The position numbers and the translations under genes were made by a program. From IMG/VR virus record IMGVR_UViG_3300038300_000093: a stretch of 64,000 nucleotides of DNA; one strand, given 5' to 3'. Shown here one piece after another: positions 16,840 through 64,000 of this stretch. The notes under the pieces were generated by a model. It was not told where the DNA came from. It saw nothing but the letters and a program-made list of their open reading frames with translations, and ran no database searches. The number at the start of each line of letters is the position of its first letter. Position 1 is the stretch's first letter. The DNA is from a virus (taxonomy: Duplodnaviria; Heunggongvirae; Uroviricota; Caudoviricetes).

Positions 16840-16856
16840 CCGTTATTTCTCCATAT

Positions 16857-17153: not shown

Positions 17154-17381
17154 TTATTTTCCCCAAAGTGCCGATCTTAAATTATTAATATTTTCATGAA
17201 CTTCTTGATTTGACTTAGCGTGAAGCCTTGGATCTAAAGTGCCTGTTATCATTTCAGCTCCATCTGGCATCTTTAAAGTATATCTATCTCCGCCATAACT
17301 TCCGCCATCCTTTTCAACTTCTGTAACTTTAGCTCTTTGTCCCATATACCAAATTGTTTGATTCTTCTCAATCGTTTTCAT
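17154..17381 (-). CDS. hypothetical protein (75 aa)
   Basis: ORF-track ORF; module upstream. Confidence 0.5.
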   Translation of the reverse strand: MKTIEKNQTIWYMGQRAKVTEVEKDGGSYGGDRYTLKMPDGAEMITGTLDPRLHAKSNQEVHENINNLRSALWGK

Positions 17382-17393
17382 CTTATGTCCTTT

Positions 17394-17729
17394 TTATACC
17401 ATTTCTATCCATATTGCAGGATACTTAAAACTTTGCATTAATGAGTTATCCCACTTGCAACTTCTCTCCTTTACAAAAGGCTTTTGGTTTAGAGAAACTT
17501 CATACTCGCTTTCAGTTAGAAACTTCATTATGAAACTTCTTGCTTCATCATCATTCTTAAAAGTTAATTCAAAAAGCTTTTCTTTCTCGTTAAAACATTC
17601 TTCTTTCGTAATGCCATCTAAAGACTTTTTAATTTCTCTAAAGATTAGATTGCGAGCTGTACTAGTATCGAATCTTGAAAACCCTACTAATACTTTGTTT
17701 TCTCCATTGTTAATTTCAATAACTTCCAT
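17394..17729 (-). CDS. hypothetical protein (111 aa)
   Basis: ORF-track ORF; module upstream. Confidence 0.55.
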   Translation of the reverse strand: MEVIEINNGENKVLVGFSRFDTSTARNLIFREIKKSLDGITKEECFNEKEKLFELTFKNDDEARSFIMKFLTESEYEVSLNQKPFVKERSCKWDNSLMQSFKYPAIWIEMV

Positions 17730-17833
17730 GAGGTTGTCCTTTTCTTTAAGTTATTTATACTATATCAGCTTAATTAATAATTGCAAGCCCTACTTTGAAG
17801 ATAAGGCAAAATCAACTTTCGTGCCTTATCTTT

Positions 17834-18187
17834 TCATCTTGCATTAATATCGTTTTCTTTATATATTAAATTTATCTCTTGATAAATTGATCCTAACTTC
17901 AACTCAGCTTCCATCTTTTGATACTTCTCTCTCAGCTGATTAAATAAAGTCTCAGAGATTTCTTTAAATCCAAAACTCTCAATAATGTGGAACTTTCCAT
18001 CAATGAATATTAAATCGCCAGAACTAACAGAAGGATAATCTCTAGGCTGAAATTCATTCTGGCCATATCTATAGATTAAATCTAACTTATCTTCTAATGT
18101 TGTATCTTCGTTTAATTCTTCCTCTGGAACTTCTACTGTCCTAAATGAATTTCCTTTGTACTTGCTTACTACATTTGCTCTCATCAT
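17834..18187 (-). CDS. hypothetical protein (117 aa)
   Basis: ORF-track ORF; module upstream. Confidence 0.55.
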   Translation of the reverse strand: MMRANVVSKYKGNSFRTVEVPEEELNEDTTLEDKLDLIYRYGQNEFQPRDYPSVSSGDLIFIDGKFHIIESFGFKEISETLFNQLREKYQKMEAELKLGSIYQEINLIYKENDINAR

Positions 18188-18229
18188 TTCGTTGTCCTTT
18201 ATTCTTTTAAGATATTTAACTATAAGGGC

Positions 18230-18589
18230 TCAAACGAATAGTTCAAGCCCTACTTTTAAATAAGCTGTAAGTTTCATTTCTTCTCTAGCGTTATTTATCC
18301 ACTTGAGACAAGTTTCTTTGAAGTTGTCCAGATCAATGCTTACATCTAGATCATCTCCCTCTGTCATTACTTCTTGGAGAGTCTCAAAATCATAGTAAGT
18401 TTCGTAGTAAAAGCCGTTCTTGTCTAAACCATCGTGTACTTGTATTAAAACGCACATTATATCTGGAGTTTCGTTCTTTAAATCCCAGTTGTCATCCTTT
18501 GCAAAACTCAAGTGTATTCCGATTTGTTCAGATCCATTGAGATTTTCAATGTCTTTGCCGATTGCAATTAATTTTTCGATCTTATTCAT
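18230..18589 (-). CDS. hypothetical acidic protein (119 aa)
   Basis: ORF-track ORF; module upstream. Confidence 0.55.
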   Translation of the reverse strand: MNKIEKLIAIGKDIENLNGSEQIGIHLSFAKDDNWDLKNETPDIMCVLIQVHDGLDKNGFYYETYYDFETLQEVMTEGDDLDVSIDLDNFKETCLKWINNAREEMKLTAYLKVGLELFV

Positions 18590-18675
18590 TTTGTGTCCTT
18601 TTGTTTAGTTGTCTTTCTTAATAAGATCAATATAGATGTACTTAGGACTATTACAAGCCCTGTTTTGAAAGTTTC

Positions 18676-19182
18676 TTATCTCTTATCTCTTGCTATATGG
18701 AAAGATTTTCTCATTCTTAGGGCCATGTCGTCCACTTTAAAATATCCCTCAGAGATTTTCTTCTTAGCCATTTCTGTAATTGGAAGAATGCTATTACTTG
18801 GCTCTCCTATGTTGATAACTCCCTCTACTTCGCAGCATGAAAGGCCGTCAAGCATGTGCTTCAATGCGTCATCAATTGTATGTGGCTCATTCTTGAAGAA
18901 ACGAAATCCAAGCCCGATTGAAGAAGTAAAGATTTTAGTCAATTGTCTTTTATCACAATGATCATATACAAGCTCAAACAATATGGAAAAAACTGCTTCG
19001 TGGTCAACTGATTCTGAATCTAAACCACAACGCTTTCCAATTATAGTTTGTAAGTCTTTCATAACATCATCACTCTCATACCGTCCGGCTCTTGTCCGGC
19101 TCTTGCTTTGCTTTGTCCTCTCATACCAATGTTTGGCATAAAGAAAAATATGATTGTAATCTAATATTTTCATTTTAAGCAT
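18676..19182 (-). CDS. hypothetical protein (168 aa) carrying a short GC-rich CCGGCTCTTG repeat insert
   Basis: ORF-track ORF. Internal repeat at about 19085-19125 encodes ..SKSRTRAGRY.. Confidence 0.55.
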   Translation of the reverse strand: MLKMKILDYNHIFLYAKHWYERTKQSKSRTRAGRYESDDVMKDLQTIIGKRCGLDSESVDHEAVFSILFELVYDHCDKRQLTKIFTSSIGLGFRFFKNEPHTIDDALKHMLDGLSCCEVEGVINIGEPSNSILPITEMAKKKISEGYFKVDDMALRMRKSFHIARDKR

Positions 19183-19191
19183 TCCTTACTT

Positions 19192-19470
19192 TTAACGTTG
19201 AATTGATTCTGTAATTTGCTCAAACTCTATGTCCATAATTTTCTTTCTTAAAAACATTTGAAATTCAAGGATAGTTTGGAATTGTCTACAGCCATCATCA
19301 TTCGTTACAACTACCCAACTGCATTCCTCTGGAGGAAGATCAAGTCCTTTCCATGTTAGATTTGAATATGCCAGTAATTTTATTTCATTTTCAGAAACTT
19401 TTCTTCCATCATAATCTACTATTAAAGTTGAAGATGCGTCATCTATTATTGCCGAGCCGTATATTTTCAT
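19192..19470 (-). CDS. hypothetical protein (92 aa)
   Basis: ORF-track ORF. Its C-terminal MDIEFEQITESIQ segment is shared with the N-terminal region of ORF 19866-20435. Confidence 0.5.
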   Translation of the reverse strand: MKIYGSAIIDDASSTLIVDYDGRKVSENEIKLLAYSNLTWKGLDLPPEECSWVVVTNDDGCRQFQTILEFQMFLRKKIMDIEFEQITESIQR

Positions 19471-19544
19471 TGTCTTGTCCTTTTATTTAAGATATTTCAA
19501 TATAAGGCTTGAACGATTATATTCAAGCCCTGTTTTGAATTATA

Positions 19545-19784
19545 TTAAATCTCTTTAGTTATGTACCAGTCGTAAACTTCAAAGCTCAACTTGCAATCAA
19601 CTTTAAATCCTTCTAGCTTTGATTTTATTGCACTCATGAAAAAATGGCTTGATGACTTCCATCCGTAAGAATCTGAAATACAAGTGGATAGTTTTAAAAA
19701 GCTCTTGTCTTTAACTAATTCTTTAACCACTACTAGCATTTCTTCTGCGCTTTCCGCTTTGTTCATTTCGTCTATAGTACTCAT
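19545..19784 (-). CDS. hypothetical protein (79 aa)
   Basis: ORF-track ORF; module upstream. Confidence 0.5.
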   Translation of the reverse strand: MSTIDEMNKAESAEEMLVVVKELVKDKSFLKLSTCISDSYGWKSSSHFFMSAIKSKLEGFKVDCKLSFEVYDWYITKEI

Positions 19785-19865
19785 TGTTTGTCCTTTGTAT
19801 TTTGTTTGTTATTTAAGATATAACAATATAGATGGTGTTAGGGCTTTTTCAAGCCCTGTTTTGAA

Positions 19866-20435
19866 TTATTTAATTTCGCCTTCTTCTGTGAAGTCATAAT
19901 CATTTGCAACTAAACTTTCGTCTACAGCTTCATTTGAAGTTATCCTTTCAATTTCTTCATATCCTTCCTTTTGAAAATCTCTTGAAAGATCTTTGATATG
20001 TTCTTGTAGATGGTCTGTAAAGTCTTCTAAAGCCTGTTCGCGAGAAGAGTTCTCATAGCCATTGTAAAGAGCTTCATTGTAGCTTACTGTCATTGTATTG
20101 TAATGATTGTAATGACTGTTGTTGCTGTATATCTCAACATTGTCAATCAGTAAGTCTTTATCAGCGTCAAAAAGCTTTCTGAACTTTGATTTAATCTTAT
20201 TCTTGACTAAGTACTCTTCAACGTCTAGTGAACCATAAAACGCAACTCCATCTCCTTGACAACATGAAAGTCTCCATTGTACATCTTCAGTCGGCAATCC
20301 AAGCTCTTCTAACTTAAGTTGAATTGATTCTGTAATTTGCTCAAACTCTACGTCCATTGACTCTTTCCACCAGCTTCTAGCTGTTTCTTTTGATGATTCT
20401 GAAAGTTCATTGAACTTGTAAATTGCTGTTTTCAT
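19866..20435 (-). CDS. hypothetical highly acidic protein (189 aa)
   Basis: ORF-track ORF; module upstream. Composition is reminiscent of DNA-mimic anti-restriction proteins, but there is no motif-level support. Confidence 0.55.
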   Translation of the reverse strand: MKTAIYKFNELSESSKETARSWWKESMDVEFEQITESIQLKLEELGLPTEDVQWRLSCCQGDGVAFYGSLDVEEYLVKNKIKSKFRKLFDADKDLLIDNVEIYSNNSHYNHYNTMTVSYNEALYNGYENSSREQALEDFTDHLQEHIKDLSRDFQKEGYEEIERITSNEAVDESLVANDYDFTEEGEIK

Positions 20436-20517
20436 TTTGTGTCCTTTGTGTTTTGTTTGTTATTTAAGATATAACAATATAGATGGTGTTAGGACTTTTG
20501 CAAGCCCTACTTTGAAA

Positions 20518-20907
20518 TTATTTTAAAAGATTTATTTTATTCTTACAGTAAGAATATAATTCGTCAGACTCTTCTTTTGTAATGTCTTCATCATCACTGA
20601 CAATATTATCATAGTCAGAAAGAGCTGTAAAGAATGAGCCAGAAGAAGTATTTGAAAGATTATTGCCTTTCTGTCCTTCAAGCCATAGTGGATAAGAAGT
20701 ACTAATCTTATTATCATTGAATTTATAATGTCTCTGTAAACATCTAAACTTGAATGTTTCCCAGTTCATCAAGTCAGACTGATAATCAAGTAAGTCTTGA
20801 CTGTCTTCCATTGCTGAATCAATCTTTTCAATGAGCCCAATTAGCTTCCACTTCTTTGTTTTTTCTTTAACCATTTTCTTTGTCCTTTTGTTTTTAAGAT
20901 ATTTCAA
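20518..20907 (-). CDS. hypothetical protein (129 aa)
   Basis: ORF-track ORF; module upstream. Confidence 0.55.
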   Translation of the reverse strand: MKYLKNKRTKKMVKEKTKKWKLIGLIEKIDSAMEDSQDLLDYQSDLMNWETFKFRCLQRHYKFNDNKISTSYPLWLEGQKGNNLSNTSSGSFFTALSDYDNIVSDDEDITKEESDELYSYCKNKINLLK

Positions 20908-20918
20908 TATAGATGGTG

Positions 20919-21158
20919 TTAGGACTTTTGCAAGCCCTTTTTTGAAAGTTTATTTAAAAAATTACTAGCTGATACTTTTGCTTCCCTTAAAGTATTCTCT
21001 GCGTCAAGATTTTTATAACAAGTGCAAATTCTCCAATGAGAGTAAAGCCTATATCCAATAAGAGCTTTGAAGATTACGCCAATTGTCTTGCCGTTCATTA
21101 CTATGTCGTATCTGCTTGTCCCAGATCTTTTGAATTCTATGATATTTTCTTTAACCAT
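20919..21158 (-). CDS. hypothetical protein (79 aa)
   Basis: ORF-track ORF; module upstream. Confidence 0.5.
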   Translation of the reverse strand: MVKENIIEFKRSGTSRYDIVMNGKTIGVIFKALIGYRLYSHWRICTCYKNLDAENTLREAKVSASNFLNKLSKKGLQKS

Positions 21159-21232
21159 TTTTTGTCCTTTTGTTTTTAAGATATTTCAATATAAGGCTTG
21201 CTTTCTAAAAGTCAAGCCCTGTTTGAATTATA

Positions 21233-21628
21233 TTAAGAAGAAGAATTACAAGTCCACTTTCCATCTTCAAAGATATAACCGTACTCTTCATTGTTCTTAT
21301 CTTTATCCCAGTTTCCAAGTACAAATTCGGTGTCTCCTTCGCCTCTATCTCTACCGTAGTAAACTGTATGTCCTTCAACTGGATTATCATAAGAATGCCC
21401 TTCAGGCTTCTCGCAACTTTCAGCCAACGAACTCATATCTCCATGAGAAATTAACTCAATTACTTTTTCTTCTTCATCATAATTTTCTGTTAGTATTGGC
21501 ATCATATTAGAAGGATAACCGTCGAAATGAACATAAGCATGGATTATTTGGCCCGCTTCAATATCTCTTCCACCAACTGTTACTGAATTGTATGAAACTT
21601 TAACTGCTACTCTTGATCTTGTACTCAT
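21233..21628 (-). CDS. hypothetical protein (131 aa)
   Basis: ORF-track ORF; module upstream. Confidence 0.55.
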   Translation of the reverse strand: MSTRSRVAVKVSYNSVTVGGRDIEAGQIIHAYVHFDGYPSNMMPILTENYDEEEKVIELISHGDMSSLAESCEKPEGHSYDNPVEGHTVYYGRDRGEGDTEFVLGNWDKDKNNEEYGYIFEDGKWTCNSSS

Positions 21629-21709
21629 TGTGTGTCCTTTGTGTTTTATTTAAGATATTCTAATATAGTTGTTGTTTGGGCCTTTACAAGCCCTACTTTA
21701 AATATTCTT

Positions 21710-29366: not shown

Positions 29367-29548
29367 TTTAGATATTCCTCTCTGTCAGATACTACCAAAA
29401 CGCCTTTCTCACATTTAATCATTTTCTTGATGCAAATAAAACAATAAAGTCCTGAAAGTGAATGCTCATCGACAGGCCAATCTATATGAGAAGAAGTGAA
29501 ATAATGCATCCCACATAAATAACAAATGTCTCTCGAATCATATTTCAT
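29363..29548 (-). CDS. Cys-x2-Cys zinc-ribbon micro-protein (61 aa)
   Basis: ORF-track ORF containing CYLCGMH...CFICIKK. Start context CACGAAAGTTGATATG. Confidence 0.5.
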   Translation of the reverse strand: MKYDSRDICYLCGMHYFTSSHIDWPVDEHSLSGLYCFICIKKMIKCEKGVLVVSDREEYLK

Positions 29549-29549
29549 A

Positions 29550-29735
29550 TCAACTTTCGTGCCTTATCTTCTCACCTACTATCATTAAACCTCCTCTGCC
29601 ATGATAAAAACTATTGTATTTAATGCGAAAACAACTGTTACATAAAATCTTATCAAGTAATATTAAATGACGATCAGGTTCATAAATAACCACATCACCA
29701 GTTATACATAAACTACATTTAAAATGTTTTTCCAC
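29550..29735 (-). CDS. Cys-x2-Cys zinc-ribbon micro-protein (61 aa, GTG start)
   Basis: ORF-track ORF containing CSLC...CNSC. The start codon at 29735-29733 is GTG, lying inside the conserved CACGAAAGTG motif. Confidence 0.45.
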   Translation of the reverse strand: MEKHFKCSLCITGDVVIYEPDRHLILLDKILCNSCFRIKYNSFYHGRGGLMIVGEKIRHES

Positions 29736-29898
29736 TTTCGTGCCTTATCTTCTTAGAGATATATAAATAACCATTATATGCAAAAGAAGATCTGTACTTT
29801 AGATAGTGACAACTTTGACACAAATCTTCAAACCCAACATGTTGAGAATCGCAAAGATTACACTCGACTTTTATGTTATAACTACTCCCACAATCCAT
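29719..29898 (-). CDS. Cys-x2-Cys zinc-ribbon micro-protein (59 aa), not in the ORF track
   Basis: Hand-translated: MDCGSSYNIKVECNLCDSQHVGFEDLCQSCHYLKYRSSFAYNGYLYISKKIRHESGKTF. Start context CACGAAAGTTGATATG. Confidence 0.4.
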   Translation of the reverse strand: MDCGSSYNIKVECNLCDSQHVGFEDLCQSCHYLKYRSSFAYNGYLYISKKIRHESGKTF

Positions 29899-29899
29899 A

Positions 29900-30070
29900 T
29901 CAACTTTCGTGCCTTATCTTTTTAGAAATGAATAAACTGCCATCCATGCTATACTTCTTACTAAGTTTAAAACAATCAAAACAGAAACTACCACTACAAA
30001 CAATACTACTGTTTGAAAAAAATACAGTTGCATAATCGCGATTACAAAAAGTACATTGATAAGAATGCAT
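29900..30070 (-). CDS. Cys-x2-Cys zinc-ribbon micro-protein (56 aa), not in the ORF track
   Basis: Hand-translated: MHSYQCTFCNRDYATVFFSNSSIVCSGSFCFDCFKLSKKYSMDGSLFISKKIRHES. TGATATG overlap with the next gene. Confidence 0.4.
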   Translation of the reverse strand: MHSYQCTFCNRDYATVFFSNSSIVCSGSFCFDCFKLSKKYSMDGSLFISKKIRHES

Positions 30071-30100
30071 ATTAACTTTCGTGCCTTATCTTATAGAAAT

Positions 30101-30355
30101 TCAACATCTGTACTTTGTATCATTACCAGAAGGAGGAATCTTATTAAACTTAGGAAGTTCAGGCTTACCAGTATGAGCATCGTTCAACTCTTCAAGTGTA
30201 GCAGTTGTCTGCTTCTCTCGTAAAGGATCTATCTCATGTACAAATGTTAAATTTAAATGATTCTTAACTATCTTTACTTGCTCGTCTGTCATTTCATCAG
30301 ATCCAGAGATCTCAAAAAAACCCTGTAACCAAAAACAAAAATCTATACTATTCAT
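30101..30355 (-). CDS. hypothetical protein (84 aa)
   Basis: ORF-track ORF. Confidence 0.5.
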   Translation of the reverse strand: MNSIDFCFWLQGFFEISGSDEMTDEQVKIVKNHLNLTFVHEIDPLREKQTTATLEELNDAHTGKPELPKFNKIPPSGNDTKYRC

Positions 30356-30356
30356 A

Positions 30357-30509
30357 TTACTTCCTCACCATTCTAGTCTTATTACAATCTGGACAAACAA
30401 ACATATAAGGAATTGGCTCCTTCTTATCTGTAAAGAATCCTATCCTATACATAAGTGTACAAGGAGGCGCTGGTGGACATTTATGTTTCTTCTTTTTCTT
30501 CTTTCCCAA
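30357..30509 (-). CDS. small basic zinc-ribbon protein (about 50 aa, TTG start), copy 1 of a duplicated gene
   Basis: Hand-translated: (L/M)GKKKKKKHKCPPAPPCTLMYRIGFFTDKKEPIPYMFVCPDCNKTRMVRK. Canonical SD AAGGAG 9 nt upstream of TTG. A second copy about 90% identical at the nucleotide level lies at 52960-53112. Confidence 0.45.
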   Translation of the reverse strand: MGKKKKKKHKCPPAPPCTLMYRIGFFTDKKEPIPYMFVCPDCNKTRMVRK

Positions 30510-30685
30510 CTCTCTTCTCCTTCATTTAAAAATTCATTAAACATTACAAGAATGATTGGCATTCCGGGTCTCCGCAGATAACTATAATATTTATTAAATC
30601 TTTCACATCCATTTATACCGTTAAATTATCTTAGATATATAATATAAAACAAGATTATAATTTTGCAAGACGATTCTTTAATTTT

Positions 30686-31260
30686 TATCTCTCGTGCTCA
30701 AATGGTCTACTTTTCCCATATAGAGAAAGACAAAATTCTTTTACAGTTCCCTTGTCTGCCAGATTCATCTGACAGACGTCTTTAATATACACGCCCAAAC
30801 CAACTTGTCAAGCCCCAAATCATTCACAACATGTAAAAACTTACACACTAATATATCTAATCAATCACTCTGGGTAATCTTTTACTCATTAACTTCTCCC
30901 CGACTGGGATCTTTCGGTCTTTCCCTATATGCCAGAATAACACTTTTCGTGCTTGAGGAGTCTACTTTTCCCATATAGAAGAAGACAACAATCCCCCAAC
31001 AGGGAAACAATCATTATTTACTTTCGTGTCTTATCTTATCCTATATAACAATAATAACACTTTTTGTGCTTGAGAGGTCTTCTTTTCCCATATAGAGAAA
31101 GACAAAATTTACTTTCGTGTCTTAACTTCTGGTAGATCCATCTGACAGAATGACCTGAACGGGTTCTTTTTATATCTCTCAGGGCTTTCTGACAAAAAAA
31201 GAAATTTTAAACTTTCGTGCTCAAATGGTCTACTTTTACCATATAGAAGAAGACAAAAAT
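30686..31260. repeat. four dispersed copies of a ~47-bp element CTTTCGTGCT(CAAATG/TGAGGA)GTCTACTTTTCCCATATAGARAAGACAAAA
   Basis: Copies at about 30686-30740, 30943-30998, 31062-31112 and 31205-31258. Each carries an imperfect inverted repeat around TATATGGG. Interspersed are TCTGACAG boxes (30770, 31140, 31188, 31375, 31425) and family-B motifs. Confidence 0.6.
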
Positions 31261-31516
31261 AACTTAATGAATATTATTCTGTACATTCCTCTGGGTTGAT
31301 GGCTAATATTCTGTACAATAGTTGCACAAACATCTATTCATTGGGTTATATCTGGGTTAAAAGATGCACAAGCATCTGACAAATCTACTTTTTTTTGAAA
31401 ATCCTTTTTTCAAATCTGACAGAATTTTTAATTTCTGGGACATTTGTCAGTCTTTTTTGTGTTTTTTTGCTATTTTTTGCTATTTATCACTGTTATTTGA
31501 CCCGTATTTCTAATTC

Positions 31517-31992: not shown

Positions 31993-32232
31993 TTATTGTT
32001 TCCATTTTCCTAGGAAGTAATTCAGATTCATTCCTGAGCCATAGCCAATTTTCTCATCTATTAATTTTTCAAAATTTAAGCTGAAATTCTCGTCATAAAT
32101 AAATAGGCAGCCTTTAAATTCTTCCTTGTATTTTCTAGGAACTATGCTACTACTATACAGGTTAAATTCTATTGGGAATATATTGTCGAATACTTTCCTG
32201 TGATCTTCTTCTTTTATATTCTTATATTTCAT
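31993..32232 (-). CDS. KGCLFVYDD-family paralog (79 aa)
   Basis: Contains FKGCLFIYDENF; first member of the tandem array. Confidence 0.6.
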   Translation of the reverse strand: MKYKNIKEEDHRKVFDNIFPIEFNLYSSSIVPRKYKEEFKGCLFIYDENFSLNFEKLIDEKIGYGSGMNLNYFLGKWKQ

Positions 32233-32324
32233 TGCTTAGAGGGTCTTCTATTATTTAAAGTTTTACAGAATAAATTAAAGCCCCATTCTCTGAGAAAGTC
32301 ATCCAGATCTATTCCGGTATTCTT

Positions 32325-32500
32325 TTGAACTTTTTCCTGTCCTGTCCTGTCCGGCTCTTGTGGCTCTTGCTCTGTCTTGTCCTCTTGTGGCTCTTGCCTT
32401 GCTTTATTCTGTCCGGCTCTTGTGGCTCTTGCTCTTGTCCGGCTTTGCCTTGCTTTGCTCTTGTCCTCTTGTGGCTCTTGCTCTGTCCTGCCCTGCTCTG
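32325..32500. repeat. GC-rich minisatellite (CTCTTGTGGCTCTTGC / TGTCCGGCT units)
   Basis: At least 7 tandem units. Encodes the low-complexity tail of ORF 32404-32655. The same CCGGCTCTTG unit occurs at 19085-19125 inside ORF 18676-19182. Confidence 0.6.
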
Positions 32501-32655
32501 TCTAGTATTTTTTCAAATCTTGAGCTGAAATTATCGTCGTAAACAAATAGGCATCCTTTATATTCTTCCTTGAATCTAACTGGGCAGAATCCTATTGGGA
32601 ATATATTGTCTAAGACCTTATCGTGATCTTTAATATCTATATGCTTATCATTCAT
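32404..32655 (-). CDS. KGCLFVYDD-family paralog with a low-complexity tail (83 aa)
   Basis: Contains YKGCLFVYDDNF. The C-terminus is encoded by the GC-rich repeat at 32325-32500. Confidence 0.55.
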   Translation of the reverse strand: MNDKHIDIKDHDKVLDNIFPIGFCPVRFKEEYKGCLFVYDDNFSSRFEKILDRAGQDRARATRGQEQSKAKPDKSKSHKSRTE

Positions 32656-32658
32656 TAT

Positions 32659-32946
32659 TTAAAGTCTCTTAGACATTCCATTCTGGCTTGTGGTTGAGAG
32701 TAGTCTTGGAGTTCTTCCTTGTAGGTTTACCCTATTCCATTCTCTTAGGAAGTATTCCAATGTTAATCCTGAACTATAGCCTATTTTCTCATCCATTAAA
32801 TCTTCAAACTTTAAGATGAATTCCTCATCGTATACAAATAGGCAGCCTTCGTATTCTTCCTTGTATTTAATCGGGTGGAATCCTACTGGAAATATGTTCT
32901 CTACTACCTTCTTGTGATCTTCTTCTTCTATTACTTTATAGTTCAT
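32659..32946 (-). CDS. KGCLFVYDD-family paralog (95 aa)
   Basis: Contains YEGCLFVYDEEF. Confidence 0.6.
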   Translation of the reverse strand: MNYKVIEEEDHKKVVENIFPVGFHPIKYKEEYEGCLFVYDEEFILKFEDLMDEKIGYSSGLTLEYFLREWNRVNLQGRTPRLLSTTSQNGMSKRL

Positions 32947-33135
32947 TTACTGCAATCTTGCAAAGAGGGCTGATTTACAAATTTCTTTCCTGAACTCTTC
33001 ATCGTAAATAAATAGACATCCTTCGTATTCAGCATTATACGGCCATCGCCTTGACAGCCTTGACCTATACTCCTCCTTATAGAAATTGTTTCTTGCCTTC
33101 TTATAGTCTTCTTTCTCTATTACTTTATAGTTCAT
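32947..33135 (-). CDS. KGCLFVYDD-family paralog (62 aa)
   Basis: Contains YEGCLFIYDEEF. TAAATG junction with the next gene. Confidence 0.55.
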   Translation of the reverse strand: MNYKVIEKEDYKKARNNFYKEEYRSRLSRRWPYNAEYEGCLFIYDEEFRKEICKSALFARLQ

Positions 33136-33329
33136 TATTTATTCCATTCTTTGTCATTCCATTCTTTGAGGAAACATTCCAAATTATCAAAGCTTGAGCA
33201 GAACTTATCATCATATATAAATAGGCATCCTTTAAATTCTTCTTTACATTTTCTTGGGTTGAATACTAATGGGAATACGTTGTTGAATGCTTTCTTATAG
33301 TCTTCTTCTTTTATATGCTTATCATTCAT
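33135..33329 (-). CDS. KGCLFVYDD-family paralog (64 aa)
   Basis: Contains FKGCLFIYDDKF. Confidence 0.55.
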   Translation of the reverse strand: MNDKHIKEEDYKKAFNNVFPLVFNPRKCKEEFKGCLFIYDDKFCSSFDNLECFLKEWNDKEWNK

Positions 33330-33332
33330 TAT

Positions 33333-33533
33333 TTAAAGCTTCCAATGAAAATGGACTTTTCCAACTTCTTCCTTGAAAAGATCATCATATACAAATAGGC
33401 ATCCTTGGAAGTTATCACCAATAATTCTTTTATGCAATATCGCTCTCTCCAACCGTTTATTTCTGATTCTCTCTCTTATAAAGTTTTCCGTTGTCTTCTG
33501 ATAGTCTTCAATGTCTATATGTTTATAGTTCAT
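33333..33533 (-). CDS. KGCLFVYDD-family paralog (66 aa)
   Basis: Contains FQGCLFVYDDLF. Confidence 0.55.
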   Translation of the reverse strand: MNYKHIDIEDYQKTTENFIRERIRNKRLERAILHKRIIGDNFQGCLFVYDDLFKEEVGKVHFHWKL

Positions 33534-43839: not shown

Positions 43840-44094
43840 TCATTTCAAAGTTTCTCCCAAGCGAGTACAATACTTAAAATCATTCTTTGCAGTAGAATAC
43901 CATTTCTCTTTTTCATTGTAATTCACAAATGGAGCAACTACACATACAAGATCAGCATTTATATGAGCGAACTCCTCAACAGGATCATCATGAAAAAAAC
44001 ATATTTCTCCGAATTCTGGTAATTCCTTACAAGAGTGTCCTCTAAAAGGAAGAATGCATCCGCATTTTTGGCAGGGATTTATTATGTCAAACAT
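43840..44094 (-). CDS. Cys-rich hypothetical protein (84 aa)
   Basis: Contains CQKCGC...HSC. Confidence 0.5.
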   Translation of the reverse strand: MFDIINPCQKCGCILPFRGHSCKELPEFGEICFFHDDPVEEFAHINADLVCVVAPFVNYNEKEKWYSTAKNDFKYCTRLGETLK

Positions 44095-44422
44095 TTCTAT
44101 ATTTCAACCTATCTTGGTATTTTCTTTCAAACTCTTCGTTTCTTTTCCAACTCACGACTCTTTTGAATATAACCCTGAATTGTTTATGATTCTTATGTGT
44201 AGAATGTACTATTCTCAAGTGGCAAGTTTCACAGAGACTCACTCCATTGTTTAAATCTAATGCTTTCTCAGGACAATCATATTTCCTATCAAGATGATGA
44301 GCTTGTATCTTTCTTTTAGATGTTGCCTTTTCAAGGCACATTTGACAAATGAAATTATCTCTTATACGAATGTATCTTGACCATTTGGCCAAATAGTATT
44401 CAGAATATGGATTTTCACTCAT
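44087..44422 (-). CDS. HNH endonuclease
   Basis: CQMC ... AHHL ... LDLNNGVSLCETCH is the canonical HNH C-x2-C / HH / N / C-x2-C-H arrangement. Confidence 0.7.
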   Translation of the reverse strand: MSENPYSEYYLAKWSRYIRIRDNFICQMCLEKATSKRKIQAHHLDRKYDCPEKALDLNNGVSLCETCHLRIVHSTHKNHKQFRVIFKRVVSWKRNEEFERKYQDRLKYRNV

Positions 44423-44993
44423 TCCTTTTTCCCAGTCCTTCCACTGATTCTTTCACCGTCTTTAATTAAAGAACCTGAAGGATCAATATAAACAGATGCA
44501 CTTTTACACTTATCACCATTAACTCTTATTGTTCTGGCTCCACTAACATACAAATCTTGTGAGTAAAGATATAAATCAACGGCTTTGGCCAATTCATTTC
44601 CAGTAAGTTTAATATCTATACCAGTTCCAAACTCAGAATCACCTTTTCCTTTTTTGATTTTCATCCTATATCGCCACTCATTGTTGACACTGATCCTTGG
44701 ATCGATCCAGAGCAACTAACATCACCACTCATAGTCTTTACAGATCCTTGAATATCTCCAGAACAATCAACATCACCACTCATAGTCTTTACAGAACCAC
44801 AATTTCCCTTTACTGTAATCATATCGCAAGCATCAACATCAAGTTTTTCAATGCTAGACTCAATCACAATACTTATATTTTTCTGATCTATATTTTTAAG
44901 GTTGGTAATTTCCTTGCCATTTGAAAAAACTCTATTACCATTTATTGTAACATTTCCTGAAAAATTATACTTATCGCCATTTATATTAATCAT
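44419..44993 (-). pseudogene. bactofilin-like beta-helical repeat gene split into two overlapping ORFs (44661-44993 and 44419-44715)
   Basis: Upstream ORF carries GSVKTMSGDV.CSG.IQ repeats; downstream ORF continues a beta-strand-rich pattern. The 55-nt overlap in different frames suggests a programmed frameshift or a disrupted gene. Confidence 0.4.
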
Positions 44994-45005: not shown

Positions 45006-45656
45006 TTAATAGTCATCAATCTGTTTTAGCTTTCCAATGGGAAAGAATCCATTAATAATATCAGGAGCCCACTCATCACTATAAAATGATTCTGATACTC
45101 CATCAACATGCGTTTCAGTCCAATTGTTAGAATCTTCTACCCAATCTAGTCCTTCTCCCTCTTCATGCATTTCATTCTTTTTAAGTACTTCTTTTTCATC
45201 AGATGAATCATTTACATACATTGCAAAACAATCTGATAATACAAAGAACAATTGATTAGTCATTGGGTTGAAAAGAACTTCCCCACCATCAACTTCAACA
45301 TAATGCTTTCTACAGTATTTCATCGCCTCTTTGATTAACTTTACTTTTTCTTTTAAATTTACTTCAAATACAAAAGTAACTTCTTCATCATCATGAGCTT
45401 CTGAATACATGGTGAAAACTGTTACAAATTTACCAGTATCAACATCTTCCATTACCCTGTAGTCAATTTTACAGTACGTCTTCTTGCAGCGCCTTTTCCA
45501 AGTTCCAGATCCATAAACATGTAAACATGCTTTCACAGCATCTTTTGTTGAATTCACTTCATTGGGCCAAAATCCTTTCGCCTCTCCAATCTTATCCTCA
45601 GAGTTTTCTCTGTCACTGAATAAGTCATAAATTGGCTCGTCGCATGCATATTTCAT
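45006..45656 (-). CDS. hypothetical acidic protein (216 aa)
   Basis: ORF-track ORF. Confidence 0.55.
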   Translation of the reverse strand: MKYACDEPIYDLFSDRENSEDKIGEAKGFWPNEVNSTKDAVKACLHVYGSGTWKRRCKKTYCKIDYRVMEDVDTGKFVTVFTMYSEAHDDEEVTFVFEVNLKEKVKLIKEAMKYCRKHYVEVDGGEVLFNPMTNQLFFVLSDCFAMYVNDSSDEKEVLKKNEMHEEGEGLDWVEDSNNWTETHVDGVSESFYSDEWAPDIINGFFPIGKLKQIDDY

Positions 45657-45670
45657 ATTCTAATCCTTAA

Positions 45671-46435
45671 TTAATTCCAAACAAACGATTCTTTATCTTT
45701 AGAATCTATAATAGAAGATGTAATGTAATTAATCACAGTACGCTCTACTTCCAAATTGGGGTTGCTTCTTGCTTGATGCTTTTCTGGAAGAGATTCAATC
45801 TCCTCAGTTGTAAACTTGGATATAGACTTTGATCTTTTGATACAAATTCCATTCCTATAGCATTCCGGCATCTTAAGCCAATCATTATTATCTTCTTCAA
45901 GCATCTTCTTCATTTCCCACGTCTTCTTCTCTTGAAGCTGTTTGTGGCTAAATACAGACTGAGCTAAACAACTTACGCTATTTCTTCTACAATCCTCTGC
46001 TCTCCACTCCAAACACTCAATAGCTGTTTGCTTGTCTGGTACTTCAAAGATACGACAGTCAAACAATGCCATTACATCAGAATTTGATAAGTTGTTGAAA
46101 TGATAAGTAGCCAAGCTTGCCAATACTGAGCAAAGCTTCATGAATTTTCCACCAAAGAATAATTCTTGATTATCACTCTTCTTTGTCAAAACTAAACTTA
46201 TTTCATCAGATTGAGTATAACCGATATCAGCATCACAATATAATACCAATTCCTCCGTGACTTTTTTCATTTGATTGAAAAATTTCTCATCAAATGGCTT
46301 CTCGCAATTGATGGATTTAGTATATTTACTAAAGTTCTTGCCATCCAATCTAATTATTATCGGCTTGTCACCTGAGGGCTTATAGTTAAACTCTCTTTCA
46401 TATTCTTTAAGCTTGTCGCCAAGTGGATCTTTCAT
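45671..46435 (-). CDS. Thg1-like protein (tRNA-His guanylyltransferase family, 3'-5' nucleotidyltransferase)
   Basis: PIIIRLDGKNFSKYTK ... ADIGYTQSDEISLVLTKKSDNQELFFGGKFMKLCSVLASLATYHFN matches the Thg1 core (VVVRLDGRNFHRF ... AYGQSDEYSFVF ... R.SK..T..AS.F...Y). Start chosen at MKDPLGD (ATGA coupling to an upstream micro-ORF); the track's longer ORF would start at 46465. Confidence 0.75.
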   Translation of the reverse strand: MKDPLGDKLKEYEREFNYKPSGDKPIIIRLDGKNFSKYTKSINCEKPFDEKFFNQMKKVTEELVLYCDADIGYTQSDEISLVLTKKSDNQELFFGGKFMKLCSVLASLATYHFNNLSNSDVMALFDCRIFEVPDKQTAIECLEWRAEDCRRNSVSCLAQSVFSHKQLQEKKTWEMKKMLEEDNNDWLKMPECYRNGICIKRSKSISKFTTEEIESLPEKHQARSNPNLEVERTVINYITSSIIDSKDKESFVWN

Positions 46436-46611
46436 TCTTTTATCCTTTTTAGTTCTCTTAAGCATAACTTACAAGTGACTTTATCTGTATTGTAAGTTAT
46501 GTCATCCCTAACATAGCCGCACTCTGTGCTATGATTATATTCGTAATCGGTTTGACCTGAATTTCTAAAGTCTTTACCTCTCAAAAACATGTGTATTTTC
46601 GGATTTCTCAT
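46432..46611 (-). CDS. zinc-ribbon micro-protein (59 aa), not in the ORF track
   Basis: Hand-translated: MRNPKIHMFLRGKDFRNSGQTDYEYNHSTECGYVRDDITYNTDKVTCKLCLRELKRIKE. ATGA overlap with the Thg1-like start. Confidence 0.35.
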   Translation of the reverse strand: MRNPKIHMFLRGKDFRNSGQTDYEYNHSTECGYVRDDITYNTDKVTCKLCLRELKRIKE

Positions 46612-46618: not shown

Positions 46619-47047
46619 CTATTTTAGCAATCCTTCAATATCATCAAGTTCCATTCCAGTACGAGCTTCTTTACTTACAAGGGAATTTAACTTCTTCTCA
46701 AGTGCTTTATATTTCTTTTCTTCTTCTGCATATTTAACCTTGTCAACACACAGCTTAAAATCCTCAGTCCACGCCTCTAATGAGTAACCATCCCAATCAA
46801 ACATATCAAACACACAAAGAAGTTTACAAGCTTCTGCGTGATTCTTTGAGGCATTCAGTAAGTATGTTAATCCACTTATCGCTTTGTCAAAACTTCCAAT
46901 AGTATTTAGGTTTAATACTCTTCCATCAGTGTATTTAAACAATGCATTGGTTTCCCATGCCTTCTTAGGCTTTGCTCCTAAGGATTTCTTCTTATCCTCA
47001 AGCTTTTTAATCAAACCTTTTACTCTGTTGTCATTTTTGCTCATCAA
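46619..47047 (-). CDS. hypothetical protein (142 aa)
   Basis: ORF-track ORF. Confidence 0.55.
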   Translation of the reverse strand: MMSKNDNRVKGLIKKLEDKKKSLGAKPKKAWETNALFKYTDGRVLNLNTIGSFDKAISGLTYLLNASKNHAEACKLLCVFDMFDWDGYSLEAWTEDFKLCVDKVKYAEEEKKYKALEKKLNSLVSKEARTGMELDDIEGLLK

Positions 47048-55421: not shown

Positions 55422-56273
55422 TTAAATTGCAACATCACCTTTGATACTTTCATGACTTTTATAATTACATACTTCAAAATTAGTATATTCCCAGTTAAAT
55501 ATGTCAACAGGATCTTTGAACTTCACTGTTGGAAGGTCATATGGAGTGTTGCTTAATTGTTGTCTACACTGATCAATGTGATTCTCATAGATGTGAGTGT
55601 CACAGAGGACTCCTGACAGCGTTCCTGCCTTCATTCCAACATGGGCACATATAATCTCTAGAAGCGCGGCATACGAAGCGACATTGAAAGGAATTCCTAA
55701 GAAAAAATCACAACTACGCTGGAACCATGTTAAATGTAGCTTTCCATTGATATGTTGTACATTGAATCCAAGATGGCATGCTGGCAAAGCTTGTTGATAC
55801 TTCTGCAATGGATTCCATGCAAAGCATAACATCCTTCTGTCATTTGGATTTGTTTGAAGTGTGTTTATAATGTTGGCAAGTTGATCATAACTTTCAGAAC
55901 TTGGAGGCAGAGCTTCTTTGTTAGGCTTCCCATTGACATACTCTTGATTGAACCTGCGCCATTGCATACCATAAATAGCCCCAAGATCATCTTTATCATC
56001 TGACACTGGATTAGACCACTCATTCCAAATTCTACACTTGCGCTCTTGATACCATTCCTTTGATGTTATTCCCTTTAAGAAACCTTCCAATTCAACTAGA
56101 ATTGCTCTAGTATACATCTTCTTTGATGTTAGAAGCGGAAATCCTTTAGACATATCATGTTGAAGCATGACTGTTGGTATTACAAGAGTATCTATCCCTG
56201 TTCTGTTTGACTTTCTTTCACCATTCTCAAGGATGTTTTCCATTACGCTAAGATACTGCTGTTCAATATTCAT
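55422..56273 (-). CDS. thymidylate synthase family enzyme (ThyA-type dUMP methylase or dUMP hydroxymethylase)
   Basis: Near-collinear with E. coli ThyA. Conserved segments: NRTGIDT (substrate-binding Arg), AIYGMQWRRF, LPACH (catalytic Cys), FQRSCDFFLGIPFNVASYAALLEII (Asn in PFN implies dUMP rather than dCMP), and C-terminal VAI. Confidence 0.8.
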   Translation of the reverse strand: MNIEQQYLSVMENILENGERKSNRTGIDTLVIPTVMLQHDMSKGFPLLTSKKMYTRAILVELEGFLKGITSKEWYQERKCRIWNEWSNPVSDDKDDLGAIYGMQWRRFNQEYVNGKPNKEALPPSSESYDQLANIINTLQTNPNDRRMLCFAWNPLQKYQQALPACHLGFNVQHINGKLHLTWFQRSCDFFLGIPFNVASYAALLEIICAHVGMKAGTLSGVLCDTHIYENHIDQCRQQLSNTPYDLPTVKFKDPVDIFNWEYTNFEVCNYKSHESIKGDVAI

Positions 56274-56865: not shown

Positions 56866-57303
56866 CTATTTCTTCCATAATCCAGTACCATCTGAAACAT
56901 TACACTCTGCATTGGGACAGAAAGATCCAATACCTGGAGCACTCCCCAAAGCCGTATCACATTTATAGCAAACAAAGGCATACAATCTCGCTTTGAGCTT
57001 ATCGTTATCCTCTATATGCACTAAACATCTTTGTGAACACCTATAATGAGCCTTATCCATTGTTGCTAACTCTTTTGTCAATTCAGCCTTTTCCTCAAGC
57101 AACTTGTTTTTTTCTTTTTCAAGTTCTTCCTCTCGTGGCCTTGTATTCCATCCATCTTCATGATTAAATGTCGCTCCATCTTCAAACATTGTTCCGCAAT
57201 GCATACATGACACTTGATTAGAATATCGACCAGTTCCTTTTCGTACAAATTCAGCTTCCCCGTTGCAGAAAGGACATTTTTTCAATTCACTCATTTTTAT
57301 CAC
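56866..57303 (-). CDS. Lar-family restriction-alleviation-like zinc-ribbon protein with a C-terminal extension
   Basis: N-terminus LKKCPFCNGEAEF ... SCMHCGTMFEDG ... WNTRP matches the Lar pattern (CPFCGG.a ... C..CGa ... WNrR). A second Cys cluster lies at the C-terminus. Confidence 0.55.
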   Translation of the reverse strand: MIKMSELKKCPFCNGEAEFVRKGTGRYSNQVSCMHCGTMFEDGATFNHEDGWNTRPREEELEKEKNKLLEEKAELTKELATMDKAHYRCSQRCLVHIEDNDKLKARLYAFVCYKCDTALGSAPGIGSFCPNAECNVSDGTGLWKK

Positions 57304-61113: not shown

Positions 61114-61491
61114 CTATAATAATTGTAACTTTTTAGTCAGTTTGTTGAGAGTTTCTATATCTTCCTCGGTATAAACTGGGCCTAATGCCATAACTGTTGG
61201 AGTTCCGGCTGTTACTTCCGTTCTTCCCCCATCAACTTGAACAGAACAAGGAATATCAACTTCTTTTGCCTTTGCAACTAACTTATATAGATTCTTTTCA
61301 CTCTTCACATAACAAGTAATACAAACATGGCCATCGTCAACATCGTCACCATAAGGCTTTAAATCAGGATTTCTCCTTAGAGCATGAATAACTTGTGCCG
61401 CTGTCTTACCGATTGACATATTTAAATCTTTTCTAACTACTAAAACTAACTTACTCTTTAATTCTCTCATCGATCTATTTCCTTGAATCAT
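61114..61491 (-). CDS. peptidyl-tRNA hydrolase, PTH2 family
   Basis: KLVLVVRKDLNMSIGKTAAQVIHA ... VQVDGGRTEVTAGTPTVMALGP matches PTH2 (KMVLVVRTDL.MGKGKIAAQCSHA ... DAGRTQIAPGS.TVLGIGP). Overlaps the upstream RNA ligase gene by 17 nt. Confidence 0.75.
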   Translation of the reverse strand: MIQGNRSMRELKSKLVLVVRKDLNMSIGKTAAQVIHALRRNPDLKPYGDDVDDGHVCITCYVKSEKNLYKLVAKAKEVDIPCSVQVDGGRTEVTAGTPTVMALGPVYTEEDIETLNKLTKKLQLL

Positions 61492-62458
61492 AATCCATAT
61501 TGATAATCTTAAATGAATCTTCTTCAGTATTTATAACCACTCCTTCAAAACTCTGTCCGTTTAGCTTTTTAGGTGTTAAATATCTGTCGATAAGTTCTTG
61601 ATTAAATTCTACACCCTTTTCAATCATTGGAACCGTTTTCATATTTAATGATTTGGCAACCTCAAAAATGTAATACTTTGACTCAGTACGCTCATATTTC
61701 ATCTCATCAAAGTTAAATACTGAATAAAGAGCTAGATCTATCTTGAGTTTGCTATGAGGATTGTTAGAACTATTCTGTAGTCCTTGACCATACACTTCAC
61801 CACGAATAGCCAAAGAAACATCATTCTCTATACAGAAAGATTTCAATACATTTTCAACGTCATACACTTTGTTATGCACAGTGTAGATGTTTTCCTTATC
61901 AACATCAAAATCAACAGAGCGGCCAGTAATGCCGAATCTAAAGCCATCTGGCTCATTTTCATCTCTAATGCAGTAAGCCGTCCAACTCGATCCATCAATC
62001 TTAAGTGTTACATCAACCTTTTTACCAAAGTACTTACTTATATCGATATTTTGAAACATGATCTCGTCAGTCTTAGGAAGATTTACTGGAAGGCCTCCAA
62101 CTCCGCCATAAACTTGAGATACCGGAGCTATATATTTTGTAATTCCAAGAGAACTTACATCATCACCGACATTAAAAGAATCATCCAATCCAACGTCTTC
62201 CAAACTAACAACAATTCCAAATGACCAAATTCCACGAAGCTTTTGAGCCTTAACACGCTTTTTATTAAACTTCTTATAGAATTCAGCCCAAGGGGATTCT
62301 GGGAGGACAGTGTCTGGATAAATAAATAATACTTTATCACCGACTTTAAATGCTCCGCGAGATACGATTGCAGGAAATCCCTTGACTTTAACAATGTCTA
62401 AGCGATCTGCATTTGAATGAGTAGTTACTTCTTTGATTAATTCTATTTCAGCTAACAT
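61475..62458 (-). CDS. ATP-dependent RNA ligase-like nucleotidyltransferase fused to an N-terminal tRNA-binding (Myf/EMAP-type) OB-fold domain
   Basis: N-terminus HSNADRLDIVKVKGFPAIVSRGAFKVGDKVLFIYPDTVLPE resembles the tRNA-binding OB domain (HPnADkL.v..vd.G...iVcGA.n...G..v..A.pGavLp). Ligase motifs follow: I TLKIDGSS (KxDG), IRGEVYGQG, IV FEGVVI, V SFKIIN. Confidence 0.65.
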   Translation of the reverse strand: MLAEIELIKEVTTHSNADRLDIVKVKGFPAIVSRGAFKVGDKVLFIYPDTVLPESPWAEFYKKFNKKRVKAQKLRGIWSFGIVVSLEDVGLDDSFNVGDDVSSLGITKYIAPVSQVYGGVGGLPVNLPKTDEIMFQNIDISKYFGKKVDVTLKIDGSSWTAYCIRDENEPDGFRFGITGRSVDFDVDKENIYTVHNKVYDVENVLKSFCIENDVSLAIRGEVYGQGLQNSSNNPHSKLKIDLALYSVFNFDEMKYERTESKYYIFEVAKSLNMKTVPMIEKGVEFNQELIDRYLTPKKLNGQSFEGVVINTEEDSFKIINMDYDSRK

Positions 62459-63479: not shown

Positions 63480-63731
63480 CTATTTATACCTTTTGTCTTG
63501 TATATCTTTTATTTTTCTACAAACACTAGATACTTCCCAATCTCCCCTTGACCCAACTTCCAAAACTAATTTTTCCAGTTTCTCTATCTGCTCATCTCTT
63601 TTATCCAACATGTAAGACATAGATTCTTCATAGTTTCCACATTCTTTTAAATGCTTTATCGAACCACACATGAATACATTACATCCAGCACAACATTCAA
63701 ATTCCAACTCAACACTATGTTCTCTCATCAT
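63480..63731 (-). CDS. Cys-containing hypothetical protein (83 aa)
   Basis: ORF-track ORF. Confidence 0.45.
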   Translation of the reverse strand: MMREHSVELEFECCAGCNVFMCGSIKHLKECGNYEESMSYMLDKRDEQIEKLEKLVLEVGSRGDWEVSSVCRKIKDIQDKRYK

Positions 63732-64000
63732 TTTCCATAACCCAATAAAAACTTAACCTTGTTTGATCTTTTTTGCTTTTTAACTTTGTATTCTAATTTA
63801 GTAGCTTGAGATCTGTTTTCTAAAGGAATCGATAGTGCAATCATTTTAACTGGCCTTCTTGTTGAAGTATACTTAGCGCCACCACATAGAAGGCCGTTGT
63901 GTCGCCTTATTCTCTTTTCCACATCATTCGACAGTCCAGTGTAATAAGTCCCGTCAATGCACTCTACAATGTAAACGTAGTAAGATTTACCAGTGGGCAT
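63728..64000 (-). CDS. GIY-YIG nuclease-domain protein (COG2827/YhbQ-like)
   Basis: YYVYIVECIDGTYYTGLSNDVEKRIRRHNGLLCGGAKYTSTRRPVKM matches GIY..YIG ... R...HN.G.GAKYT..R.P. Its ATG sits at the last three bases of the window. Confidence 0.65.
   Translation of the reverse strand: MPTGKSYYVYIVECIDGTYYTGLSNDVEKRIRRHNGLLCGGAKYTSTRRPVKMIALSIPLENRSQATKLEYKVKKQKRSNKVKFLLGYGK

Follow-up and report, generated by a model that had tools for sequence, protein, structure and literature searches.

A putative bacterial-type Thg1-like protein encoded by a tailed phage and its probable part in the repair of tRNA 5' ends

Why would a tailed phage carry a gene for an enzyme that extends RNA in the 3'-5' direction? 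This question is raised by a gene of the IMG/VR virus record IMGVR_UViG_3300038300_000093 (Caudoviricetes), of which a stretch of 64,000 nucleotides (the window) was analysed. An earlier note, made from the letters of this DNA alone, had described the gene as encoding a Thg1-like 3'-5' nucleotidyltransferase and had grouped it with an RNA ligase and a PTH2 gene into a phage toolkit for tRNA repair or counter-defence. Here, profile searches, a structure model and the comparison of related loci are used to ask what the gene encodes and what its product might do. The predicted product is a bona fide member of the Thg1 family with an intact active site and is assigned to the bacterial-type Thg1-like proteins (TLPs). 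With moderate confidence, we favour the reading that it restores damaged or mis-processed tRNA 5' ends in the infected cell.

The family assignment of the earlier note is borne out by several independent models. The Pfam model Thg1 (PF04446) matches with 99 bits, far above its cut-off of 29.2 (E=2.6e-28), and spans residues 17-143 of the 264-residue open reading frame (ORF) and positions 2-130 of the 130 in the profile. PHROG 4717, named 'tRNA-His guanylyltransferase', matches at E=1.7e-66. The best relative of solved structure is the TLP of Bacillus thuringiensis (BtTLP, PDB 4kgk; E=1.2e-29), and human Thg1 is found at E=1.5e-11. The C-terminal model Thg1C (PF14413) gave no match at E<=1 in the product, and some relatives do carry PF14413. 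All three motifs that had been pointed out beforehand (RLDGKNF, YTQSDEISLVL and KFMKLCSVLASLATYHFN) are present in the translation. The longest ORF runs on the minus strand over 45671..46465, as the note had placed it, and reads 264 amino acids from its first ATG. A second ATG at codon 11 (46435) shares the letters ATGA with the stop codon of an upstream 59-residue ORF and is preceded by AGGA, a database record holds an identical protein of 254 amino acids, and close homologues measure 253-258 amino acids. Together, these features make a 254-residue product starting at Met11 the most likely one, which the previously claimed length of 255 amino acids fits.

Residue numbers below refer to the 254-residue protein and conservation to a 63-sequence alignment of homologues, in which D31, G32, F35, P47, D49, S76, D77, E78, K100, D126, R128, W144, R145, D148 and N152 are invariant. 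Catalytic roles are taken from the work on Thg1 and TLP enzymes (PMC3701042). The metal-binding carboxylates D31, D77 and E78, which correspond to D29, D76 and E77 of the human enzyme and to D30, D75 and E76 of BtTLP, are kept in all 63 sequences, and the conserved arginine R29 (human R27) in 62 of them. K46 occupies the place of the activation-step lysine (human K44, BtTLP K43); this position holds lysine in 27 of the 63 sequences and arginine in the other 36, and it is K in 23/23 members of the close clade. The basic residues of nucleotidyl transfer are represented by K100 and R128, both invariant, which match K99' and R131 of BtTLP. The position of BtTLP R16' aligns to a non-conserved Asn in an N-terminal region where the alignment is ambiguous, and the nearby R14 (R/K) is partly conserved. 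Judged from these residues, the phage enzyme is apparently catalytically competent.

The predicted fold leads to the same family. An AlphaFold2 model built from the 63-sequence alignment reached a predicted local distance difference test score (pLDDT) of 94 and a predicted template modelling score (pTM) of 0.89. In a Foldseek search of the PDB with this model, the top 32 matches were all Thg1 or TLP chains, with template modelling (TM) scores up to 0.74/0.83 and BtTLP as the best match (TM 0.73/0.81). In addition, the model contains a predicted long beta-hairpin, with strands at 197-207 and 229-238, that carries a conserved LPEKHxARxNP element and the invariant R232. In MaTLP, a flexible C-terminal beta-hairpin (R198-R215) bears a conserved Arg that reads the tRNA elbow (PMC4820378), and we infer that the modelled phage hairpin may be its equivalent.

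Within the family, bacterial TLPs and eukaryotic tRNA-His-specific Thg1 enzymes can be told apart by profile and by motif. With a profile of the phage family, BtTLP reaches 213 bits, and the yeast, Candida and human Thg1 proteins reach 95-105 bits. Where eukaryotic enzymes have the D-C/T-H-I-N-N-L-Y-N motif and an insertion region of about 10 residues, the phage protein has WRAEDCRRNSVSCLAQ (WRAEDCRRNSVS) instead, and HINNLYN is missing. Both observations argue that the putative enzyme is a bacterial-type TLP, not a eukaryotic tRNA-His-specific Thg1, which agrees with the repair type named in the earlier note.

What such an enzyme might do in an infected cell can be modelled on the characterised homologues BtTLP and MaTLP (PMC3701042, PMC4820378), the former of which has been described as mainly a 5'-end repair enzyme (PMC3701042). 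The phage TLP would bind, at its dimer interface, a tRNA-like RNA duplex with a recessed 5' strand, classically a tRNA that misses at least one acceptor-stem 5' nucleotide. A 5' end that is a monophosphate would be activated with ATP or GTP, K46 positioning the ATP. Nucleoside triphosphates would then be added in the 3'-5' direction, with the acceptor-stem 3' strand as Watson-Crick template and two metals held by D31 and D77. Addition would end at full acceptor-stem length, once the C-terminal beta-hairpin no longer reaches the tRNA elbow. Host or phage-encoded tRNAs with damaged or mis-processed 5' ends would serve as substrates; we infer this and the role in vivo. The damage may come from host immunity, from mis-processing of dense phage tRNA arrays or from ordinary turnover. 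The TLP would act beside other phage RNA repair enzymes, namely the Rnl1 or Pnkp encoded next door in close relatives and a pair of Rnl5-type ligase and PTH2 genes elsewhere in this window.

The genomic context of relatives supports a link between the TLP and RNA repair. Neighbourhoods were counted within 10 kilobases (kb) of the TLP gene in 74 non-redundant loci. A gene of the Rnl5, Rnl1 or Pnkp type, detected with iterated local hidden Markov models (HMMs), occurs in 20/74 loci, and the nearest ligase or Pnkp gene lies no more than 1.5 kb from the TLP gene in 14 of these 20, where 15% would be expected under uniform placement (p=4.6e-8). Genes for tRNAs are present in 25/74 loci, as arrays of at least five in 10 of those, and tRNA genes, repair genes or both in 39/74. 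These contexts favour general tRNA or RNA-end repair over a role specific to tRNA-His.

The closest relatives add detail to these counts. In two loci, L001 and L002 (85% identity; the closest relative for which DNA is available), a T4 Rnl1-type ligase gene begins 58 nucleotides after the TLP gene (10824..11963 in L001, 8986..10125 in L002). Both loci are syntenic with the window: genes for proteins of 559 and 155 residues and a homologue of the 141-residue ORF are followed by the TLP gene and then by a homologue of the 216-residue ORF (in L001 at 12174-12629; phmmer 1.2e-74). The ligase gene sits between the TLP gene and the latter homologue, and in the window the corresponding gap (45656..45671) measures 14 nucleotides, which amounts to a clean presence/absence of Rnl1. 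Furthermore, in L005 and L006 (58% identity) a kinase-phosphatase with AAA_33 and HAD_PNKP domains is encoded two small genes upstream of the TLP gene, about 500 nucleotides away.

In the window itself, the genes of the proposed toolkit exist and are scattered. The ligase is an ATP-dependent enzyme of the Naegleria/Deinococcus type, whose closest solved relative is the Naegleria gruberi ligase NgrRnl (5cot/6vt4, E=8e-18; 5cot over residues 2-286); the model of the Deinococcus DRB0094 family (TIGR02306) scores 103 bits, under its equivalog cut-off of 151. Its N-terminal OB domain (PHA02142 OB, PF21189) weakly resembles the tRNA-binding OB fold of PheT (E=6e-6) and is the built-in N domain of the NgrRnl/DraRnl family. 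The description of this gene as an RNA ligase fused to a tRNA-binding domain therefore stands as regards the ligase and falls as regards an added tRNA-binding module, since the OB domain is native to the family. The PTH2 gene that the note had located at 61.1-62.5 kb is confirmed by PF01981 (78 bits), and its matches to NF003314 and TIGR00283 stay below the cut-offs of these models. It overlaps the 3' end of the ligase gene by 17 nucleotides (61475..61491), which marks the two as a coupled pair. About 15 kb and about 45 ORFs separate this pair from the TLP gene, so that the ligase is a possible functional partner of the TLP that is physically unlinked from it. PTH2 was rejected as a partner, as it occurs within 10 kb of the TLP gene in 0/74 loci; the pairing of ligase and PTH2 near TLP genes is likewise seen in none of the 74.

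Pfam sweeps over 91 ORFs of the window found no Pnkp, Rnl1, RtcB, CCA-adding enzyme or 2H phosphoesterase, and the Rnl1 and Pnkp proteins of relatives had no match in it when used as tblastn queries. ARAGORN and Rfam found no tRNA gene in the 64-kb window, nor any other Rfam RNA. The claimed absence of tRNA genes thus holds for the window and does not extend to the whole phage, whose genome comprises at least about 130 kb. The idea of a toolkit is retained for the existence of its genes and given up for their clustering, given the distance of 15 kb and about 45 ORFs, the missing Pnkp and Rnl1 and the 0/74 loci with PTH2 near the TLP gene.

Several points weigh against tRNA 5'-end repair as the function. 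The TLP gene of the window has no gene for RNA repair beside it, and the window is devoid of Pnkp, Rnl1 and tRNA genes. The local Pnkp HMM behind the count of 20/74 loci may include generic P-loop kinases. Immediate neighbours across the 74 loci are heterogeneous, with NUDIX hydrolases in 5, PF09414 ligases in 2 and Rnl1 in 1, besides genes of NAD salvage and many of unknown function. The literature searched contained no experimental work on a phage TLP. Nor do we know of a host nuclease that shortens tRNAs at the 5' end in the course of phage infection. As a separate observation, NUDIX hydrolases are the commonest Pfam family directly beside phage TLP genes, where they stand alongside NAPRTase, PRPP synthetase and NrtR (loci L008-L087); they could be RppH-like makers of 5'-monophosphate ends or simply members of NAD clusters.

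The opponents that the earlier note had envisaged for the phage enzyme, anticodon nucleases of the PrrC/RloC type, are poor candidates. Because cuts in the anticodon loop would leave no template strand for a TLP, as reasoned from its mechanism (PMC4820378), PrrC and RloC are unlikely to be its targets. The literature searched contained no defence nuclease that trims tRNA 5' ends, and a paper on bacterial Schlafens within it described neither acceptor-stem cleavage nor phage repair enzymes. A stronger proposal would make phage TLPs true counter-defence enzymes that, with nick-sealing ligases or Pnkp, restore the 5' ends of tRNAs or close gaps in RNA stems once an undescribed host immune nuclease has trimmed or cut the acceptor-stem 5' strand. 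We put this forward tentatively and consider it rather unlikely.

A different job for the enzyme would be the maintenance of tRNA-His, i.e. adding or re-adding G-1 opposite C73 on host or phage tRNA-His and so keeping histidine decoding going during infection. The database name of the homologues, 'tRNA-His guanylyltransferase', points this way, and TLPs can indeed add G-1 to C73-containing tRNA-His and have a second binding mode that depends on the anticodon (PMC4820378). A tRNA-His gene lies within 10 kb of the TLP gene in four related loci, in one of which (L035) it is only 320 nucleotides upstream. Set against the 25/74 loci with any tRNA, however, 4/74 is a small share, and of the four tRNA-His genes three carry an encoded G-1 opposite C73 (the fourth is ambiguous), so that no post-transcriptional addition would be needed unless processing removes G-1. 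Moreover, the protein is of the TLP type, without HINNLYN and the eukaryotic insertion, the window lacks a tRNA-His gene, and BtTLP is described as acting mainly in 5'-end repair (PMC3701042). We consider tRNA-His maintenance improbable as the main function. Many TLP-carrying phages infect alphaproteobacteria, among them Caulobacter (13), Brevundimonas (7) and Sinorhizobium (4) as well as Agrobacterium and Ruegeria. Several of these host groups probably lack G-1 on tRNA-His; if so, this would count against a G-1 role in their phages.

The enzyme might also fill gaps more widely, extending recessed 5' ends in any structured RNA (for instance nicked or gapped stems of tRNA, rRNA or phage RNA) before an Rnl5/Rnl2-type ligase seals the 5'-phosphate nick. 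A nick-sealing ligase of the Rnl5 type is encoded no more than 1.5 kb from the TLP gene in 7 loci and also in this window, and the analysis published in 2010 proposed wider RNA-repair roles and noted ligase and kinase neighbourhoods (PMC2904730). In the window, however, 15 kb lie between the TLP gene and the ligase gene, which is paired with PTH2 instead, a ligase within 10 kb is lacking from most loci, and no biochemical precedent was found for a TLP acting at internal gaps; the chance that gap filling is the actual role appears small. Finally, a different chemistry or none at all (a palm-domain maker of nucleotide signals in the manner of GGDEF or mCpol, a defence-system part or a functionless passenger) is very improbable: Thg1 shares ancestry with GGDEF and CRISPR polymerases (PMC2904730), but GGDEF, cyclase and mCpol structures appear among the Foldseek matches only at ranks 33-41 (E>=5e-3 and TM<=0.32, against E of about 1e-16 and TM of about 0.73-0.8 for TLPs), the Thg1-specific residues are invariant, also in the close clade at 53-85% identity, which indicates purifying selection, and the defence-system reading was rejected because PADLOC placed no defence model on the TLP, the ligase, PTH2 or the neighbours save for one marginal Cas8c match on the 141-residue ORF.

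A repair role has been proposed before in the literature. Anantharaman, Iyer and Aravind drew attention to the Thg1 gene of phage 201phi2-1 in 2010; they also described bacterial Thg1 neighbourhoods with genes for polynucleotide kinase, Macro-domain proteins and RNA ligase, and proposed an RNA-repair role 'aimed against host defenses' (PMC2904730). In a review of 2021, Iyer et al. described an RNA-repair repertoire of jumbo phages that includes Thg1 for 5'-nucleotide restoration, ATP-grasp and RtcB ligases, Pnkp, a CCA-adding enzyme and PTH2 (PMC7824862). The claim that tRNA 5'-end repair as a phage counter-defence had not been described is contradicted by these two proposals, and the genes are common: 162 deposited phage genomes contain a homologue, relatives are encoded on at least 590 IMG/VR stretches, and PHROG 4717 already groups them. 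This gene is a divergent addition to a widespread and already annotated phage family, and its proposed role has been published; the repair and counter-defence hypothesis as such was reasonable.

The closest relatives form a tight metagenomic clade at 53-85% identity, outside of which identity falls to about 40-47% with general TLPs. The homologues in deposited phages are all below 60% identity (best 42.5%), and most are annotated as tRNA-His guanylyltransferase. Hosts of TLP-carrying phages include Bacillus, Caulobacter, Mycobacterium, Erwinia and Vibrio, and the gene is also found in the Lak megaphages of Prevotella. At the nucleotide level, a megablast search of the window at 44-50 kb against deposited phages returned no match.

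The features discussed here are collected in Table 1. Within the window, the TLP gene belongs to a block of about 43.8-47.2 kb in which co-directional ORFs are tightly packed, overlapping or nearly abutting. A scan for promoters and terminators around the TLP gene found no minus-strand terminator-like site from 43.5 to 49 kb, as would be expected if the block is polycistronic. The gene order is 61-residue ORF, 141-residue ORF, 59-residue ORF, TLP, 216-residue ORF, 110-residue ORF, 81-residue ORF and HNH endonuclease. The 59-residue ORF has no Pfam or PADLOC match and no detectable homologue in the loci of relatives. Homologues of the 141-residue ORF adjoin the TLP gene only in L001/L002 and the distant L027, and tblastn against cultured phages gave no match. 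Both upstream ORFs were accordingly dropped as conserved TLP partners. The 216-residue ORF matches no Pfam or PHROG family. In the 110-residue ORF, a 51-nucleotide unit is repeated twice in tandem at 44692..44795 with 86% match and encodes repeated GSVKTMSGDV-like segments.

Table 1. Coordinates of the TLP gene, its neighbours and further features of the window.
Feature	Position	Strand	Remarks
Thg1-like protein (TLP) gene	45671..46435	minus	254 amino acids from likely start Met11
59-residue Cys-containing ORF	46432..46611	minus	stop overlaps TLP start as ATGA; translationally coupled
141-residue ORF	46619..47044	minus	phrog_2574 (PHROG 1.3e-18); two genes upstream of TLP
216-residue ORF	45006..45656	minus	14 nucleotides downstream of TLP gene
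110-residue ORF	44661..44993		phrog_3163
HNH endonuclease	44087..44422		
ATP-dependent RNA ligase, Naegleria/Deinococcus (NgrRnl/DraRnl, 'Rnl5') type	61475..62458	minus	PF09414 and PF21189 above cut-offs, phrog_968
PTH2-type peptidyl-tRNA hydrolase	61114..61491	minus	PF01981, 78 bits
GIY-YIG endonuclease	63728..64000		
Lar-like restriction-alleviation protein	56866..57303		
Thymidylate synthase	55422..56273		
SLT lytic transglycosylase domain	near 6.6-7.0 kb		

As a whole, the window has a G+C content of 31-36% and contains about 150 ORFs, of which nearly all lie on the minus strand. Many of them match PHROG families, which marks the window as phage DNA, and none is a structural gene; this content suggests an auxiliary or early part of a large phage genome. 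PHROG DNA-methyltransferase families and two DUF4116 proteins are also encoded. In the assembly of JGI sample 3300072015, from which the window comes, its sequence is divided between two contigs (98 kb and 44 kb). Probes taken from the two ends of the window had no exact match in IMG/VR or JGI metagenome contigs.

An intergenic cassette occurs 50 times in 224..21687, about once per small minus-strand gene, with one further copy at 34587, the only one in the region of 22-64 kb that includes the TLP gene. On the plus strand it reads [A/C]TATA-N16-22-CAAGCCCT, and the ATATA variant has 19 exact matches where shuffled sequences lead one to expect 0.01. Read on the coding strand, the cassette consists of a hairpin (AGGGCTTG, loop, AAGCCCT), a -10-like TATAGTAAGATT box, about 25 nucleotides, a Shine-Dalgarno sequence AAAGGAC and an ATG. 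On the coding strand the hairpin is not followed by a U-tract, so that the cassette resembles a phage promoter unit with a hairpin more closely than it does an intrinsic terminator.

Two other regions stand out. The gene-poor stretch 29500..31300 holds six copies of ACTTTCGTGCCTTATCTT at a spacing of about 170-180 nucleotides and four copies of a 56-nucleotide unit, and an exact duplicate of 28 nucleotides lies at 31519 and 31575; the stretch may be a regulatory or origin-like region. A tandem family of four to six diverged paralogous small genes lies in 32000..33400 (repeat families D1-D5, spacing about 290-440 nucleotides), and the same region holds an imperfect CTCTTGTGGCTCTTGCT tandem array at 32337-32488. 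It is near 32000..33400 that the JGI assembly of the same sample splits into two contigs.

Immunity that targets tRNAs is an active field, represented in the literature searched by PARIS, retron Eco7/PtuAB, Septu, Schlafens and Cas12a3. If phage TLPs undo a specific kind of tRNA damage, a defence nuclease acting at tRNA 5' ends would be indicated, and ligation and tRNA replacement would be joined by a third logic of repair. If, furthermore, counter-defence were true, phage-host conflict would gain its first pathway for the repair of tRNA 5' ends and bacterial-type TLPs their first role in vivo. Useful outputs at this stage are the neighbourhood statistics for Rnl5, Rnl1, Pnkp and tRNA genes, the presence/absence of Rnl1 relative to the closest relative, and the correction of the label 'tRNA-His guanylyltransferase' to TLP.

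Among known systems, BtTLP (4KGK/4KGM) is the nearest to the phage protein. It is the best match in both sequence and structure, has a similar length, the same carboxylates, the activation lysine and the equivalents of K99 and R131, and in both proteins a 'D-A/C-x-K/R-N-S' region replaces HINNLYN. The two nevertheless share only about 30% identity, one of them is phage-encoded, R16' has no clear counterpart in it, and HMMER alignments end near residue 210, leaving the C-terminal quarter with LPEKHxARxNP unmatched by sequence. With eukaryotic Thg1 (human THG1L 3OTB, yeast, Candida 3WBZ), the phage TLP has in common the palm fold, the carboxylates and the two-metal chemistry. It differs from these enzymes in the missing HINNLYN and following insertion and in the profile score of only 95-105 bits, and is expected to be template-dependent and anticodon-independent.

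The annotated phage Thg1 proteins of PHROG 4717, which include the 'putative Thg1' of Pseudomonas phage 201phi2-1, those of the Bacillus phages Bc431v3 and Kioshi, and those of Erwinia, Yersinia and Caulobacter jumbo phages, belong to the same family, are likewise encoded amid small hypothetical genes in large genomes, and have been given the same proposed RNA-repair role. In contrast to them, the present protein has at most 42.5% identity to any deposited phage, its nearest relatives (53-85%) being on uncultured metagenomic contigs. A functional analogy may finally be drawn with Pnkp and Rnl1 of phage T4, which counter PrrC. For the TLP we know of no cognate host nuclease, in contrast to PrrC in the T4 system, and the window is without Pnkp and Rnl1. 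T4 mends breaks in the anticodon loop, whereas a TLP would need a template strand and would act at recessed 5' ends. In both cases, phage enzymes would restore cleaved tRNAs, and in close relatives of the window Rnl1 or Pnkp genes adjoin the TLP gene.

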